Shown here one piece after another: positions 597 to 12,915 of a stretch of 20,000 nt of DNA. The stretch is from an uncultured virus (IMG/VR IMGVR_UViG_3300037297_000328). Taxonomy: Duplodnaviria > Heunggongvirae > Uroviricota > Caudoviricetes. The notes beneath the pieces were generated by a model, which did not search any database, had not been told where the DNA came from, and saw only the letters and a list, made by a program, of their open reading frames with translations. Position numbers and translations under genes: made by a program. Within the stretch, counting starts at the first letter, position 1. Every line of letters begins with the position of its first letter. The DNA is taken from the IMG/VR virus record IMGVR_UViG_3300037297_000328. The stretch is one strand, 5' to 3'.

Positions 597-1430
597 ATGG
601 AAAACAGGAACATAAACAACCAAACAAAGTACATAATTGCAGTGCATAATAAATTTGATAAATATGCTATTCAAACTTCAATCGAAGAGGCTAACAATTA
701 TTTAGAGCGCTTCCCCGAAAGAAAGGCAATAATTGTGTCCGGCATATATCGCAATGATGATATTGCTAAAGAAAAATACACGCAATCAATGGCCGCAAGA
801 AATAAAGGCAAACTAAAATTAATGACATTTGAAGGAACACCGCACGAAGATGTATTAAGTACAATTTTGCTTGGTTTTAAAAATGGGTTGATAATTATTC
901 ATGAAATGCAATTTAATGAAACATTTCTGGAAAAATTAATTAATTATCACGAAAAAAACATTGATGTAATTATTCATCGCAATAAAATGCTGTTCAGTAT
1001 GGCCGAAGTAGCTTACTTCAATCAACAGTCGCGTATTATTCAGCAATTTGTTGATCGCGGAGAAAATTATATTATGCCCCGCCGTATTATTGTTCGCATG
1101 CACAACGACAATGATTTTGCGATTAACAAGGAGGGACTAATACGCTACATGCAGGAGTTTGGAGAAAAAATTGGATACAAATTATTCCTTTGTCAGTTTA
1201 TTTTGCTTAAAAAAAGGCATGGATTAAGACGGGAACTGGAAAGGGTTTGTGCAGTTGAGAATGAAAAATTTGAAGATTTTATCGATCCTTATTTTTTTGA
1301 GAAAGAAACAGCAAATTACGTATATTTCGAAATGGCATCAATGGATATTATTGCAAATGCTGATATTGACTTAATAAAAGAAAGCGAAAAAGATTTAATA
1401 AGAATATTACAAGAAAACGAGGAGGTATAA
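597..1430 (+). CDS. Degenerate (Walker A-less) paralog of the adjacent packaging ATPase
   Basis: Colinear blocks shared with 1430..2362: TILLGFKNGLIIIHEM/TIADYYKNGLLILEEM, NIDVIIH/GVDVILH, VRMHNDND/LRLHKAND, NYVYFEM/YMVYCDF. No GxxxxGKT motif. Confidence 0.7.
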   Translation: MENRNINNQTKYIIAVHNKFDKYAIQTSIEEANNYLERFPERKAIIVSGIYRNDDIAKEKYTQSMAARNKGKLKLMTFEGTPHEDVLSTILLGFKNGLIIIHEMQFNETFLEKLINYHEKNIDVIIHRNKMLFSMAEVAYFNQQSRIIQQFVDRGENYIMPRRIIVRMHNDNDFAINKEGLIRYMQEFGEKIGYKLFLCQFILLKKRHGLRRELERVCAVENEKFEDFIDPYFFEKETANYVYFEMASMDIIANADIDLIKESEKDLIRILQENEEV

Positions 1431-2362
1431 TGGCATCCAGGGACGCACTGGCACAAATAGTCGTAGGCAAGCAGGGTTCTGGTAAAACTTACTCTACTAA
1501 TGAAGAGATTGCTATTTATCGAGGTAAATTTAAGAGGCCGGTACTGATCATCGATAGGAAAGGTGAATATACTAATTACAAATCAGTATATTATGACCCT
1601 GATGTAAAAGACCGCGAGAAAAGAGCTAAAGGGAATCCTAATAGCGGGCATGGGATTAAATCCATTCACTTGCCACATATTTACCGCATTGTTTGTTTCG
1701 ATAAAAACCAGCGACCAATGGATGCAAACCAGATGGTTGAATTGATTTTAACTATTGCCGACTATTATAAAAACGGTCTGCTAATTCTCGAAGAAATGAA
1801 TAGCTACATACGTCGTACTATTCCTCCGGCTTTTTATGCATTTCTTACCACATTGCGGCACAATGGCGTAGATGTAATACTCCATTTTCAGGCCAACGGC
1901 GACGCACACCCTGATATCTGGAGTCAATGCACTACATTACGTCTACACAAAGCAAATGATAGTGTAACATCAATAGTTGGTAAGCGCGGTTTTGATGCCG
2001 ACCGCTTTGAATTGGCACGTATAGCTGAACTGGCTATTTATGAAAAATACCAGAAAGGGGTAAAATTAAAAAAAGCTGCAATGCTAAAGTACGGGCATGA
2101 AGAAAATTTCCCAAAAGAGGTAAAAGAAGAAATAAACAGGCATATTTATTACATGGTTTATTGCGATTTCGATCTAAGCCAGATAAGTAATATGCACCCA
2201 GTTGATTTTAGGAAAGCATGTACAATATTTTTATACCAGGAAAAAACGCAGATAAAAGATTTGATGCAGATTGAAGATGAACATGGGCGAAAGATTTACC
2301 CAAATAAAAATGCTGCGATTCAAAAATTAGTTAGCGATAAAGAACTGGTTTACATTAATTGA
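1430..2362 (+). CDS. A32-like (FtsK-HerA superfamily) genome-packaging ATPase
   Basis: Walker A GKQGSGKT near the N-terminus, VLIIDRKGEY strand, Walker B LLILEE, and Arg-finger/sensor LRHNGVDVILHFQ. No TM segment. Start overlaps the upstream stop (TAATG). Confidence 0.85.
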   Translation: MASRDALAQIVVGKQGSGKTYSTNEEIAIYRGKFKRPVLIIDRKGEYTNYKSVYYDPDVKDREKRAKGNPNSGHGIKSIHLPHIYRIVCFDKNQRPMDANQMVELILTIADYYKNGLLILEEMNSYIRRTIPPAFYAFLTTLRHNGVDVILHFQANGDAHPDIWSQCTTLRLHKANDSVTSIVGKRGFDADRFELARIAELAIYEKYQKGVKLKKAAMLKYGHEENFPKEVKEEINRHIYYMVYCDFDLSQISNMHPVDFRKACTIFLYQEKTQIKDLMQIEDEHGRKIYPNKNAAIQKLVSDKELVYIN

Positions 2363-2386: not shown

Positions 2387-2620
2387 ATGAAAAAGAAAAA
2401 ACCATCTTTAGGATTAACAAAAAAACAGCGAAGTGCCATTGTGAAAAAGGCACGTGCAAAAAAGGACTTAGGAAAGCCTGGCAAGGATTTTAAGAAAGTG
2501 GAGACAAAAGCGTATACCTATTACCGAAAGAAAGGAAAAAGTCCGGCAACGGCCAGAAAAATAGCTAAAAAAGTGGCTGCAAGTCAGTTTTGGAAAACGC
2601 AGGCAAAAAATAAAAGATAA
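2387..2620 (+). CDS. Small, extremely Lys/Arg-rich protein; candidate DNA-condensing/core protein
   Basis: 77 aa dominated by K, R and A, with only three acidic residues. Confidence 0.65.
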   Translation: MKKKKPSLGLTKKQRSAIVKKARAKKDLGKPGKDFKKVETKAYTYYRKKGKSPATARKIAKKVAASQFWKTQAKNKR

Positions 2621-3007: not shown

Positions 3008-3859
3008 ATGGAAGAATTTAATAAGATTAAACAAAACACTGGAACATTCCTGTTGAATATGAAAAAATCTCCGTTGGATGACAGGGATTTTAAAGCTGAA
3101 ACTATCTATCCGGATCAGGTAGAGCTCCCAAAGAAACTTGACCTAAGACCTTATCTATACCCTGTGGTTAATCAGGGTGTTCAGGGTACGTGTAGTGCAC
3201 AAGTAGCAGCCTGTATGAAAGAATACCAGGAATATAAGTTACAGAAATTAACGGGCATTGAAGGTGATATGTCGCCTCAGTTTGTATACAATTTGCGCGA
3301 AGAGCCAGATTACGAAGGCATGACGCCGCGCGAAACAATGAAAATTTTGCAACAATATGGTATTTGCCGTGAAGCCATATATCCTTATAATACTATTGAA
3401 TACCCAATGTATATTTCGCAGGATGCCTATGCCGATGCACTTACTTTTCGTATTCAAAATTATGCACAAATCAATACAATTGATGCACTGAAAAAAGCAT
3501 TAGTAAAGGATGGTGTATGTTATATTTGTTTTCCAGTGTATAACTCAGGTATGCAAATGTGGAAGGCCGCACAGGGAGATATAGATATGGGTGGCCATGC
3601 GATGGCTGTAGTAGGCTATGATGACGACAAAGAACATTTTATCATTCGCAACTCATGGGGCGAAGATTGGGGTGATAATGGCTATACCTATTATCCGTAT
3701 GAAGATTTTGGGGCGCATTGGGAAATATGGGGTAGTGTGGACAAAGAGAGCGCATGGCCGGAATTTGATGTGAGTGAATATAAACAGCCTATTAAGGCAA
3801 GTCATTTACTTTGGATAGGTGCGGCAATATTGTTAATATATGTTTATGCAACTAAGTAA
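3008..3859 (+). CDS. Papain-like (peptidase C1) cysteine protease with C-terminal membrane anchor
   Basis: LPKKLDLR, NQGVQGTC (oxyanion Q and catalytic C), GGHAMAVVGYDD (H), IIRNSWGEDWGDNGY (N). C-terminal hydrophobic LLWIGAAILLIYVYATK. Confidence 0.92.
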   Translation: MEEFNKIKQNTGTFLLNMKKSPLDDRDFKAETIYPDQVELPKKLDLRPYLYPVVNQGVQGTCSAQVAACMKEYQEYKLQKLTGIEGDMSPQFVYNLREEPDYEGMTPRETMKILQQYGICREAIYPYNTIEYPMYISQDAYADALTFRIQNYAQINTIDALKKALVKDGVCYICFPVYNSGMQMWKAAQGDIDMGGHAMAVVGYDDDKEHFIIRNSWGEDWGDNGYTYYPYEDFGAHWEIWGSVDKESAWPEFDVSEYKQPIKASHLLWIGAAILLIYVYATK

Positions 3860-7837: not shown

Positions 7838-8428
7838 ATGGATTATAAACAAAGAATTGCCATGTATCATAATAAGGCAAACGGTGCGTACAATAACGCA
7901 AACGGTGGATTAGTCAGGGGGGCGCAAGCTCTTAATCCTGTCGATAGGACGTTGAGTGTTACACTTACTCCTATTTCAACTACTATTTCTGGTGCTGCTC
8001 GTATTTTTGGTGCTTTTGTCTCTCCTGATGAGACTTATAATACTGCCAATAACATGACAGTCGCTATATCTGAAAGTTCTCACATCCAGGTGAAAAAAGC
8101 TTCTGAAGCCAACCCGTTTAGGGTTAAAGGTGTTTTATACACCGTATCGAATGCTCTTCAGTTAGCTCAGCCTATTGTGATCACAAAGGCCAGCATAGCT
8201 GGTAGTTCTGAGATTGCCACTTGGCAGCCTCAAAATTACACTGCACCAACCAATTACAACGCTTTACAGATTAAAACATCTGCATTGCAGGCTGTGATTG
8301 ATGGTTACACCAGATTCGATATAAATTTTCTTGCGGGGTATAATGCGTCAATGATATTGACCATAAACGATAAGGTGGATCAGAGTTCACTATTATCTAA
8401 TAAGGTGCCTATCAAATCGGCAGAATAA
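7838..8428 (+). CDS. Candidate major capsid protein (single jelly-roll size, beta-rich)
   Basis: 196 aa, soluble, rich in A/S/T/N, with alternating beta-strand patterns. Heads the structural block and is followed by a strong terminator. Homologous to the termini of 12929..14641. Confidence 0.6.
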   Translation: MDYKQRIAMYHNKANGAYNNANGGLVRGAQALNPVDRTLSVTLTPISTTISGAARIFGAFVSPDETYNTANNMTVAISESSHIQVKKASEANPFRVKGVLYTVSNALQLAQPIVITKASIAGSSEIATWQPQNYTAPTNYNALQIKTSALQAVIDGYTRFDINFLAGYNASMILTINDKVDQSSLLSNKVPIKSAE

Positions 8429-8503: not shown

Positions 8504-8893
8504 ATGGATGATGAAAAAATACTTTGGACTGAATATATAGCAAGAAATAATCCTGATGCATTAAACTACTTGTTGGAGCAATATGGCTATTTACGTGCAT
8601 ACAGTCTGGAAGAAAGGTTGACCGCAATAGATACCTTGCAGCAAGAATATGGACACGAAGCAACAATCAATCTATTGCGCATCCATCCCGATTATGAGAT
8701 GATAGTTGAAGACAATGAACAACTTAACCCGCCAAAAGAAATAATAAAAGAGGTTGAAGTTCAGCAACCTCAAGTACAGGTAAGTGATCCTGTAAAAGTA
8801 AGTGTTGATAATGGATTTCATAATACATTAAAGGATGTATTACTGATTATTGGTGCTATTTGGCTCGTAAAAATAATAATATCAAAAGATTAG
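8504..8893 (+). CDS. Putative virion membrane protein (helical N-domain, C-terminal TM)
   Basis: C-terminal VLLIIGAIWLVKIII. Confidence 0.75.
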   Translation: MDDEKILWTEYIARNNPDALNYLLEQYGYLRAYSLEERLTAIDTLQQEYGHEATINLLRIHPDYEMIVEDNEQLNPPKEIIKEVEVQQPQVQVSDPVKVSVDNGFHNTLKDVLLIIGAIWLVKIIISKD

Positions 8894-9366
8894 TGAAAGT
8901 AAATAATAAAATAATACAGCGAGCAGTTGCTCAGTCAATAGTAAGGGATACGCCCGACTTAATAAAGTTGGTGAAAAAATATAAGCCTGTTGATGATAAT
9001 ATAAGTTTGCTCGATTTATTATTTGATGTTCAATATTTGCTCGAAAATGATAGAAAATTTGCAGCAGAATACACAAATTTTCTTTTACAGAAAAAAAGAC
9101 TTATCAATTATAATAGTGCAACAGGTTTGCTTGCCGGGGTTACTAATTTAATAGGCTCTGTTGTAAATTCAAGCACCCAAAAAAAAGAGCAACAATTAGA
9201 GTATTCGAAGCTTAGTTCTCAGAATACTCAGCAATTAATGCAATTTATGATGCAGGAGGAGCAAGCGCAGCTTGAAAAGGAGAAACAAAAAACAAATATT
9301 ATATATATAGCAATAGGTTCATTCGTATTGCTGACAGGAATTGTAATTTTTGCTAAAAAAATGTAA
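8893..9366 (+). CDS. Putative virion membrane protein (YNSATG motif, Gln-rich coil, C-terminal TM)
   Basis: GTG 8893 overlaps the upstream TAG. TM IIYIAIGSFVLLTGIVIFA followed by KK. Confidence 0.75.
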   Translation: MKVNNKIIQRAVAQSIVRDTPDLIKLVKKYKPVDDNISLLDLLFDVQYLLENDRKFAAEYTNFLLQKKRLINYNSATGLLAGVTNLIGSVVNSSTQKKEQQLEYSKLSSQNTQQLMQFMMQEEQAQLEKEKQKTNIIYIAIGSFVLLTGIVIFAKKM

Positions 9367-11695: not shown

Positions 11696-12187
11696 ATGAA
11701 AAAAAAGGCAATGAACGCCAAAGGCGATGTGTTTAACGCCAAAGGCGATGTGTTTAACGCCAAAGGCGATGTGTTTAACGCCAAAGGCGATGTGTTTAAC
11801 GCTACCAAAATAACACCTTCTTTCTATCATAAGGCAAATCCATTGTTAGGAAAAACACAGGCTGAAATTGATGTAATTTATGCGTCAAAACCTTACGATG
11901 CCGATTATTATGATTGGCTGGATAACTATTATGAGCCTGAAACTGCAACGCAGGACAAGAATAGGTTTTATACAACTATTTCCGACATCCTTGGACTAAC
12001 GGACAAGGCAGTGGATATCAAAAATAAATTTGAGACCGGTACTACAGTTAATGAAGGACCTGTATCAATGGATATGCAATTAGGTGGTGAAGAAAGGAAA
12101 GGTAAAAATACCATCTGGTATGTGCTTGGAGGAATGGTTGTCGTTCTTGTTGTTGTTGGTGTAGTTGCATCGCGTAAAAAGAAATAA
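11696..12187 (+). CDS. C-terminally anchored protein with N-terminal (NAKGDVF)x4 repeat
   Basis: TM IWYVLGGMVVVLVVVGVVA followed by SRKKK. Confidence 0.8.
   Translation: MKKKAMNAKGDVFNAKGDVFNAKGDVFNAKGDVFNATKITPSFYHKANPLLGKTQAEIDVIYASKPYDADYYDWLDNYYEPETATQDKNRFYTTISDILGLTDKAVDIKNKFETGTTVNEGPVSMDMQLGGEERKGKNTIWYVLGGMVVVLVVVGVVASRKKK
11714..11802 (+). repeat. Perfect 21-bp tandem repeat x4 plus a partial copy (aacgccaaaggcgatgtgttt)
   Basis: Units start at 11714, 11735, 11756 and 11777. In frame, no spacers. Confidence 0.95.
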
Positions 12188-12915
12188 TGCGATTTTTTGT
12201 TATTACAAATAATAAAAAAAAAGTTATTGAGCTTGACATACTTACCAAAGGCAACAAGATAGGTGTAATTGGTCATGATGTTGATAAGCCTAATACAGAA
12301 TATTTTAACCGGATGGTGGTGAAAGACGGAACTTATACGTTTAATCTTCCACAATCTCCGAAAGTACTAAAAGTTATCGTTCTTGAAGTTAATGAAGGAG
12401 ACACGGATGAATCAGATAAATATGAAATCACTGGTTTTAGATATGCTGATTTGCCTAAGCAAGCACTAATTACTGACCAGTATACATCCGAATTTATCAA
12501 GTTTGCTCAGGAGTTTTCGGCAATGGCAGGTTATCTGCCACCTAATGATTATTACAGCGATAATCGTAATTTTATGATACGGTTATTACCAGAAATCAGG
12601 GAAGATCCAAAAACTCCATCGAGAATACACACCGAAACAGGTGTGATTGAAGTGTCTAAGAAATGGTTTGATGGCATGACGGTGCCTGGCAGGATGGCTA
12701 TTTTGCAGCACGAATTTGCACATAATAATTTGAACAATAGCTACAAGAATAATAATGAAACAGAAAAAGAAGCAGATGAAAACGCTCTACAAATATATTT
12801 GGCATTGGGTTATCCAAAAGTGGAATGGATGTATGCATGGACGCACATTTTCGAGGATCACGAGTCTCATTTTGATAGGTTGGATAATAGTAATGCCATG
12901 TTGCAAGGACTGTAA
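12187..12915 (+). CDS. Zincin (HExxH) metalloprotease-like protein, M48-like motif spacing
   Basis: RMAILQHEFAH followed by ETEKEADENALQIYLALGYP. Beta-rich N-terminal domain. Confidence 0.75.
   Translation: MRFFVITNNKKKVIELDILTKGNKIGVIGHDVDKPNTEYFNRMVVKDGTYTFNLPQSPKVLKVIVLEVNEGDTDESDKYEITGFRYADLPKQALITDQYTSEFIKFAQEFSAMAGYLPPNDYYSDNRNFMIRLLPEIREDPKTPSRIHTETGVIEVSKKWFDGMTVPGRMAILQHEFAHNNLNNSYKNNNETEKEADENALQIYLALGYPKVEWMYAWTHIFEDHESHFDRLDNSNAMLQGL

Follow-up and report, generated by a model that had tools for sequence, protein, structure and literature searches.

A degenerate, probably non-catalytic paralog encoded directly upstream of a putative packaging ATPase in an uncultured virus

The locus described here raises the question of whether a virus can keep, directly in front of its putative genome-packaging ATPase gene, a second copy of that gene that has lost its catalytic residues. 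The DNA analyzed (hereafter the window) is a 20,000-nucleotide stretch of IMG/VR record IMGVR_UViG_3300037297_000328, an uncultured virus placed in the Caudoviricetes, and the two genes in question are adjacent open reading frames (ORFs). A first-pass annotation, made from the sequence without database searches, proposed that the upstream frame, ORF1, is a retained but catalytically dead paralog of the ATPase encoded by ORF2. We now consider it very probable that ORF1 is a retained pseudo-ATPase, given profile homology with controls, the lack of a Walker A motif in all 26 family members (0/26), the existence of 24 sequence clusters, and a gene order that is kept in 11 loci. The pair is arranged as follows.

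597..1430, plus strand: ORF1, 277 amino acids, the degenerate (probable pseudo-ATPase) paralog of the downstream ATPase.
1430..2362, plus strand: ORF2, 310 amino acids, a P-loop ATPase of the FtsK-HerA superfamily and putative genome-packaging ATPase.
1428..1432, plus strand: the TAATG stop-start overlap of ORF1 and ORF2, read from the sequence.

Homology between the two proteins is established by sequence profiles. BLASTP of ORF1 against ORF2 alone aligns a single 49-residue segment with an expectation value (E) of 0.001, and hhalign with shallow alignments of 3 and 6 sequences gives a probability (P) of 40.7%. When 26 ORF1-family proteins are compared with 6 ATPases, P is 97.0% (E 1.2e-10, 228 columns), and with 30 ATPases it reaches 98.2% (E 5.7e-14, 205 columns). 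Controls consisting of one reversed and ten column-shuffled ATPase alignments give P of 0.1-0.2%, which makes the comparison of the two families significant. The two families align colinearly, starting at the N-terminal strand and continuing through the C-terminal helices, and the alignment reproduces the motif matches on which the first-pass annotation was built. In the family-level hhalign alignments, TSIEEANNYLERF is paired with YSTNEEIAIYRGKF and KNGLIIIHEM with KNGLLILEEM, and hhalign also pairs IDVIIH with VDVILH, RMHNDND with RLHKAND, and YVYFE with MVYCD.

Searches with family models point in the same direction. A hidden Markov model (HMM) of the ORF1 family was compared with 6,415 ORFs, which are the six-frame ORFs of all retrieved loci, and its 50 matches at E <=1e-3 comprise 14 ORF1-family proteins, 36 ATPases, and no other protein. 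Reciprocally, the ATPase HMM matches 4 of these 14 ORF1-family ORFs (E 8.8e-6 to 1.7e-4). AlphaFold 2 (AF2) models of ORF1 and ORF2, computed from separate alignments, present their core strands and helices in the same order, and the predicted ORF1 fold is consistent with homology to the ATPase.

The segments of the two proteins that bear on catalysis are given below.

642..668, plus strand: ORF1 V16-A24 (VHNKFDKYA), opposite Walker A, with no P-loop and variable in the family.
879..908, plus strand: ORF1 K95-M104 (KNGLIIIHEM), the retained KNGL strand, aligned to ORF2 K114-N124.
960..980, plus strand: ORF1 I122-R128 (IDVIIHR), the retained "sensor" strand, aligned to ORF2 V147-F153.
1095..1103, plus strand: ORF1 R167-M-H169, a retained RxH that matches ATPase R171-L-H173.
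1466..1489, plus strand: ORF2 Walker A G13-KQGSGK-T20, with G18 and K19 invariant and the motif in 30/30 family members.
1778..1795, plus strand: ORF2 Walker B L117-LILE-E122, with E121 invariant in 30 sequences.
1856..1891, plus strand: ORF2 R143-H144 (candidate arginine finger) through D148-VILHF-Q154 (sensor strand), with R143, H144, D148, H152, and Q154 invariant in 30 sequences.

A Walker A motif of the form [AG]xxxxGK[ST] is carried by 30 of 30 ATPases and by 0 of 26 ORF1-family proteins. In the hhalign alignment, ORF1 residues H17-NKFDKY-A24 lie opposite the ORF2 Walker A sequence G13-KQGSGK-T20, H102-E103 lie opposite the Walker B acids E121-E122, H118-E119 opposite R143-H144, and N129 opposite the sensor Q154. 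The last three of these ORF1 segments are not conserved in the ORF1 family, whose alignment is variable at both the Walker A and the Walker B positions. Thus, the losses first reported for ORF1 hold at the level of the family alignment: HNKFDKY stands in place of the P-loop that reads GKQGSGKT in ORF2, the EE of Walker B has become HE, and both the candidate R-H finger and the sensor Q are gone.

Other positions of ORF1 are strongly conserved. R128, E137, and R167 are invariant in the family, K95, D123, and H169 are nearly invariant, and N96, G97, and H127 are invariant in a closer set of 11 proteins. The residues common to the ORF1 family and the ATPases are KNG (95-97), D123, H127, E137 (opposite D162), R167-x-H169, and Y243; the invariant R128 is specific to ORF1. 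Because D123, H127, R128, E137, R167, and H169 remain as invariant polar residues, one could propose that ORF1 still binds or hydrolyzes nucleotide through a non-canonical site. We regard this as very improbable, since there is no P-loop in any of the 26 members, the segment aligned to it is variable, and the active ATPase conserves most of these residues too, at sites outside its nucleotide motifs.

ORF2 itself is, by its sequence and predicted fold, an FtsK-HerA ATPase that resembles packaging ATPases from non-tailed double-stranded DNA viruses in both size and shape. G18, K19, D42, E46, G116, E121, R143, H144, D148, H152, Q154, and H173 are invariant among 30 relatives, and R171 is nearly so. 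The AF2 model has a mean predicted local distance difference test (pLDDT) score of 70, and its top Foldseek match is the STIV2 packaging nucleoside triphosphatase (NTPase) B204 (E 4.6e-6, prob 1.00), with HerA further down. B204 is also rank 1 in VIA (Z 8.1, 165 residues aligned, root-mean-square deviation 3.5), where ranks 1-8 are all FtsK-HerA proteins, namely B204, HerA, VirB4, DndH-C, and four more HerA-type chains with Z from 8.1 to 6.1. The best viral models in BFVD are a corticovirus NTPase, an STIV1 protein, the ATPase of Haloarcula virus PH1, and an A32 ATPase of a giant virus (NCLDV, nucleocytoplasmic large DNA virus).

Sequence families give ORF2 a less specific name. Its Pfam matches are weak (Zot at 3.2e-4, with AAA_10, DUF87, Terminase_3, and TrwB under their cut-offs), and Pox_A32 (PF04665) is not among the six Pfam families listed for it at E up to 10. 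Across the 30 ATPase family members, DUF87, the HerA central domain, matches 23, Zot matches 9, and Pox_A32 matches 1. PHROGs returns phrog_2666, "terminase large subunit" (1.6e-13), and a profile search of PDB sequences with the ATPase alignment yields only weak P-loop matches to SRP54. The designation of ORF2 as A32-type therefore stands by fold, through B204 and HerA and with A32 among the viral models, but finds no counterpart in Pfam, where Pox_A32 does not match ORF2. ORF2 most likely packages the genome of this uncultured phage, a putative role read from its fold, its size, its gene neighborhood, and the lack of a terminase.

As first noted, ORF1 is an intact frame of 277 amino acids whose stop codon TAA (1428-1430) shares its final A, at position 1430, with the ATG of ORF2 (1430-1432). 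The sequence GAGGAGG occurs immediately 5' of this ATG. However, Shine-Dalgarno-like motifs are present at only 2 of 25 putative starts in the whole window, and so GAGGAGG probably represents merely the codons for E-E-V. If so, coupling of ORF1 to ORF2 would run via the stop-start overlap. The ORF1 and ATPase genes overlap or are separated by at most 14 nucleotides in 10 of the 11 loci that carry the pair (one start is ambiguous), and a spacer of 457 nucleotides is found in the remaining locus, L035.

Two small ORFs lie 5' of ORF1 in the window, each of which ends in LSSNN followed by a stop codon and then by a near-identical stretch of about 25 nucleotides (CTAAGTTCTAATAACTA, then TTTCTAA); these features are at 328-358 and 549-586. 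A 12-mer of this repeat has 8 copies window-wide against a mean of 5.07, which is not above chance. We therefore judge the repeat to be local, and it is possibly a regulatory site or a duplication scar.

When 1.84 billion proteins were searched exhaustively with the ORF1 profile, the family came to 24 representatives at 50% identity. Of these, 17 have E <=1e-10, and most are 266-293 amino acids long. Members are annotated as hypothetical everywhere because there is no Pfam or PHROG model for them. Searches with single sequences recovered no relatives: tblastn against 50,697 GenBank phage records gave no match for ORF1, ORF2, or the ATPases of two relatives, and scans of IMG/VR viral contigs found none with ORF1 or ORF2 as single proteins, nor with an ORF1 sub-alignment. 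The alignment-based scan retrieved 22 viral loci, 80 metagenome loci, and 4 genome-bin loci. Our set of 102 loci consists of the viral and metagenome loci plus the window, minus one duplicate contig; the 4 genome-bin loci lie outside this set and were not screened for the upstream gene.

A same-strand ORF of at least 50 amino acids is located directly upstream of the ATPase gene in 98 of the 102 loci, and the other 4 end at a contig edge. An ORF1-family gene occupies this position in 11 of the 102 (the window, L029, L030, L031, L034-L039, and L041), and thus the pair is conserved in relatives. In 84 of the 98 loci the upstream ORF instead codes for a protein we call U, and singletons are found in 3 of the 98. 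U is an acidic protein of 280-450 amino acids that forms one conserved family, and the loci where it is directly upstream of the ATPase are among L002-L022 and L040-L108. It matches nothing in Pfam or PHROGs and is unrelated to the ORF1 and ATPase families (hhalign P 0.1% against each). No U homolog was detected in the window. Four loci have the order U-ORF1-ATPase, with U upstream of ORF1 at the following positions.

L029:5550-6407: U upstream of ORF1.
L034:1691-2464: U upstream of ORF1.
L038:8441-9208: U upstream of ORF1.
L039:7112-7876: U upstream of ORF1.

The phylogeny of the ATPases suggests where the second gene arose. A tree built from 90 distinct ATPases unites the 11 pair loci, a complete relative (G001, locus L001), and 3 loci that are cut too short to be examined for ORF1 in one group of 15 rows with a Shimodaira-Hasegawa-like approximate likelihood ratio test (SH-aLRT) value of 92. 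ORF1 is found in 0 of the other 75 rows. The ATPase of L085, which has U upstream, is attached to the outside of the ORF1-bearing group by a long branch. This ATPase also has the highest score of any ATPase against the ORF1 HMM (47.9 bits), and its Walker A is aligned to the degenerate segment. The L085 branch is likely to mark the point of origin of ORF1.

Identity is lower in ORF1 than in the ATPase for 36 of 36 locus pairs (for example, 53% versus 76% and 51% versus 65%). Synonymous sites are saturated, or synonymous divergence (dS) is undefined, in nearly all 36 pairs. ORF1-family frames are intact at about 270-290 amino acids, and the invariant residues of the family persist down to about 20% identity. 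Frames of roughly 270-290 codons that stay open at saturated divergence, together with these invariant residues, indicate apparent purifying selection on ORF1. The best reading of the sequences is that a single tandem duplication was followed by loss of catalysis and by retention under selection. One duplication, placed between U and the ATPase gene, would fit the tree group, the U-ORF1-ATPase order, and the position of L085 alike.

A different second copy is present in L098, a 68-kb metagenome contig of the U-type lineage. Here another ATPase paralog, a short frame of 196 amino acids, is found 3.4 kb upstream of the main gene.

L098:5982-6569, plus strand: second ATPase paralog (the main ATPase is at L098:9941-10906).

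This protein is partly decayed, with GSQNTQKT at Walker A, LLIIEN at Walker B, R-T in place of R-H, and NFI in place of HFQ. The ATPase HMM scores it at 61.8 bits and the ORF1 HMM at 17.3 bits. By these sequence features L098 appears to have undergone duplication and decay separately, and the presence of a second degenerate paralog there suggests that these events recur for the motor gene.

What, then, might ORF1 do? On balance we lean toward a joint explanation, in which ORF1 is a dead paralog that arose by tandem duplication and has been kept as a non-catalytic partner of the motor. The ATPase gene would have been duplicated once, at the base of one sub-lineage, with the new copy inserted between U and the ATPase. 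The upstream copy would then have lost Walker A, both acids of Walker B, the R-H pair that follows Walker B by about 20 residues, and the sensor glutamine, and would have retained the core strands and several non-nucleotide residues common to the ATPase. ORF1 would be translated along with the ATPase from one shared transcript and would serve the motor as a structural component without catalytic activity. It may assemble into a separate ring or an adaptor, through which the ATPase ring would be docked or regulated at the capsid vertex, much as P6 works with P9 in phage PRD1. For the motor role taken by itself, which is reasoned from these comparisons, we see the case as evenly poised.

Besides a vertex adaptor or a regulator, the first-pass annotation had raised the idea of a hetero-oligomeric motor. 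ORF1 and the ATPase might alternate in a single mixed ring, like an alpha3-beta3 heterohexamer in which ORF1 is non-catalytic. The two are paralogs with the same core, their genes are tightly coupled, and interface-type residues are kept (D123, H127, R167, and H169 of ORF1 match D148, H152, R171, and H173 of the ATPase), yet there is no conserved ORF1 counterpart of the invariant R143. Presumably R143 acts as an arginine finger and Q154 as a sensor, by what is known of FtsK and TrwB, and by the same analogy alternation would leave the ATPase sites without a finger. We therefore think a mixed ring quite unlikely. A separate ring or adaptor appears more likely than alternation within one ring because ORF1 lacks the arginine (R143) that a neighboring active site would need.

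Faster evolution of ORF1 in 36 of 36 locus pairs also suits an explanation in which ORF1 has taken on a function unrelated to the motor, such as assembling or scaffolding the capsid, binding DNA, or interfering with HerA-type proteins of the host. ORF1 has its own invariant R128, and in G001 the ORF1-like gene is not beside that of the ATPase. However, 10 of 11 pair loci preserve both the order of the genes and their stop-start coupling, and every genome in which ORF1 was found also carries an ATPase of this lineage. We consider such a change of function unlikely, if somewhat easier to entertain than alternation in one ring.

Several observations weigh against a dead paralog that partners the motor, and some of them concern the fold of ORF1. 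The AF2 model of ORF1 is poor, with a mean pLDDT of 54, and in Foldseek it has no match in the PDB at E <=1e-3. VIA places P-loop or RecA-type NTPases in nearly all of its top rows for ORF1, VirB4 (Z 5.3) and 8wiv (Z 4.8) among them, but the Z scores are a middling 4.7-5.8. The look-alikes of ORF1 in the ESM Atlas are glycosyltransferase-like (score 0.92, 141 shared features), with a TM score below 0.5 and a poor model. Other points concern the motor and its origin. Adjacency of ORF1 and the ATPase is not obligatory, because the ORF1-like gene of G001 (a 374-amino-acid frame) is 7.1 kb upstream of the ATPase gene. The ATPase tree is a quick maximum-likelihood estimate by IQ-TREE with a midpoint root and several long branches. 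The putative role of R143 as a trans-acting arginine finger is assigned by analogy with FtsK and TrwB. Finally, the word "packaging" is drawn from the attributes of ORF2 listed above because no capsid protein has been recognized.

The structural leads would also serve a more radical explanation, that the resemblance of ORF1 to the ATPase is spurious and that ORF1 is an unrelated Rossmann-like alpha/beta protein, for example one resembling a glycosyltransferase. The neighbors of ORF1 by Atlas features and structure are of this type, GT-B enzymes are among the top Foldseek rows at E of about 1e-2, and the pairwise BLASTP value is weak. These leads come, however, from models with pLDDT values of 0.43 (Atlas) and 54 (Foldseek), whereas the family-level hhalign result has clean controls and the ORF1 HMM matches only ATPases outside its own family. 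No Pfam family of any kind, glycosyltransferases included, matches a member of the ORF1 family at E <=0.01 (0/26). For these reasons we find a spurious resemblance extremely improbable. The assignment of ORF1 as a glycosyltransferase was tried and rejected, as 0 of 26 members match any Pfam glycosyltransferase.

Further searches gave little more. Against PDB sequences, one ORF1 alignment gave no match in a profile search, and a deeper one gave only a 48-residue match to lysine aminomutase beta (E 0.002). FlaH, RecA, DMC1, and Shu1:Shu2 are among the VIA fold neighbors of the ORF1 and ORF2 models.

The surroundings of the pair offer some indication of the type of virus involved. The window is AT-rich (guanine-plus-cytosine fraction 0.28-0.39), and nearly all of its long ORFs are on the plus strand. 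No terminase, portal, capsid, or tail family was recognized with Pfam and PHROGs among 20 window ORFs. Four ORFs belong to families that are found near the ATPase in 22-59 loci, as follows.

Window 7838-8428: conserved neighbor ORF.
Window 8504-8893: conserved neighbor ORF.
Window 8860-9366: conserved neighbor ORF.
Window 12187-12915: conserved neighbor ORF.

For the family of the first of these, loci with two copies are frequent (78 members in 59 loci), and an Atlas look-up of its 196-amino-acid window member gave no usable lead. With Pfam and PHROGs, no capsid protein or terminase was recognized among 30 members of the conserved neighbor families. The four ORFs, to which the searches assigned no family or fold, are nevertheless candidates for capsid or membrane proteins.

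Directly 3' of the ATPase gene, window positions 2387-2620 code for a protein of 77 amino acids that is very rich in lysine and arginine. It has no family match in Pfam or PHROGs, and by its composition it could be a DNA-binding or DNA-condensing protein. At 3008-3859 is a gene for a 283-amino-acid protein of the papain family (Peptidase_C1, Pfam E 4.1e-18) with a hydrophobic C-terminal tail, which is unusual for a phage structural or lysis region. Genes for a CHAP-domain protein and a peptidoglycan-binding protein are present in the window as well.

G001 (which also appears as L113-L115) is complete at 59.7 kb with terminal repeats. It encodes an integrase, a repressor, ParB-like proteins, methyltransferases, and an endolysin, and its ATPase also matches phrog_2666. 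Among 69 of its 83 called ORFs, PHROGs gave no match to a large terminase, a portal, or an HK97-type capsid protein. Related contigs in IMG/VR are 48-84 kb in length, and the bacterial viruses known to use A32-type ATPases have genomes far smaller than these. Members of the wider group are also integrated in, or binned with, small cellular genomes, because L056, L071, and L072 sit in contigs of 1.74-2.05 Mb. The four genome-bin matches are labeled Saprospira, Bacteroidota, and, in two cases, archaeal bins. The near-absence of Shine-Dalgarno motifs fits a Bacteroidota-like host, and judging from gene content the group may be an undescribed kind of non-tailed phage of such hosts.

A bolder synthesis would hold that the motor of these viruses is obligately two-component, that a paralog free of nucleotide sits in the vertex or portal complex, that L098 reflects recurrent duplication and decay, and that the viruses form an undescribed non-tailed group. 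We offer this combination only tentatively and think it rather doubtful as a whole.

The pair is of interest because much less is understood about A32 or FtsK-HerA packaging motors than about tailed-phage terminases. It bears on how A32-type ATPases dock at a capsid vertex and on which partners they need. A conserved dead paralog encoded with its ATPase is a concrete, expressible two-protein system, with which one can ask whether the rings are stacked or mixed and whether recruitment or regulation of the active copy is the task of the dead one. The pair also provides a case, from a virus, of a pseudo-enzyme that evolved through tandem duplication.

Among known systems, ORF2 most resembles the FtsK-HerA packaging ATPases such as STIV2 B204, PRD1 P9, and poxvirus A32. 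It shares with them Walker A and Walker B, an invariant R-H about 20 residues past Walker B, and a Q on the next strand. At about 300 amino acids it is of similar size, and its best folds are B204, HerA, and VirB4. It differs in that Pox_A32 does not match ORF2 and matches only 1 of 30 family members, and in that no jelly-roll capsid protein is recognized near it. We know of no A32- or B204-type ATPase with an adjacent dead paralog. A full-text literature search, with subscription papers and supplements outside its reach, found no description of one, and in the accessible part of PMC5894146 the terms "second ATPase", "two ATPase", "inactivated", and "paralog" do not appear.

The nearest functional parallel comes from PRD1. 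According to PMC4267777, P9 and P6 form a 12-fold complex in which P6 aids the incorporation of P9, and P6 is a small accessory "packaging efficiency factor" that acts with the A32-type ATPase at the unique vertex. This provides a working model for ORF1 as an accessory protein that acts with an A32-type ATPase, as a functional analogy only. ORF1 differs in being demonstrably, by hhalign, a paralog of the ATPase; to our knowledge there is no evidence that P6 is a paralog of its ATPase. If the proposed role is true, ORF1 would be a homology-derived counterpart of P6 that supplies the docking ring these viruses otherwise lack.

Non-catalytic paralogs are known among ATPases of the ASCE (additional strand, catalytic E) division, for example the alpha and B subunits of F1 and V1, the archaellum protein FlaH with FlaI, and Rad51 paralogs such as Shu1-Shu2. 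As appears to be the case for ORF1, a P-loop or RecA-type ATPase was duplicated, catalysis was lost, and the dead copy was kept as a partner with a structural or regulatory role. Whereas F1 alpha still binds nucleotide and provides the arginine finger, ORF1 has neither a P-loop nor a candidate finger. The setting of ORF1 also differs from all of these, in that it is a viral packaging motor. The pair represents a variation on a known theme, in which an ASCE ATPase has a dead paralog as its partner, in a setting for which we know of no earlier description.

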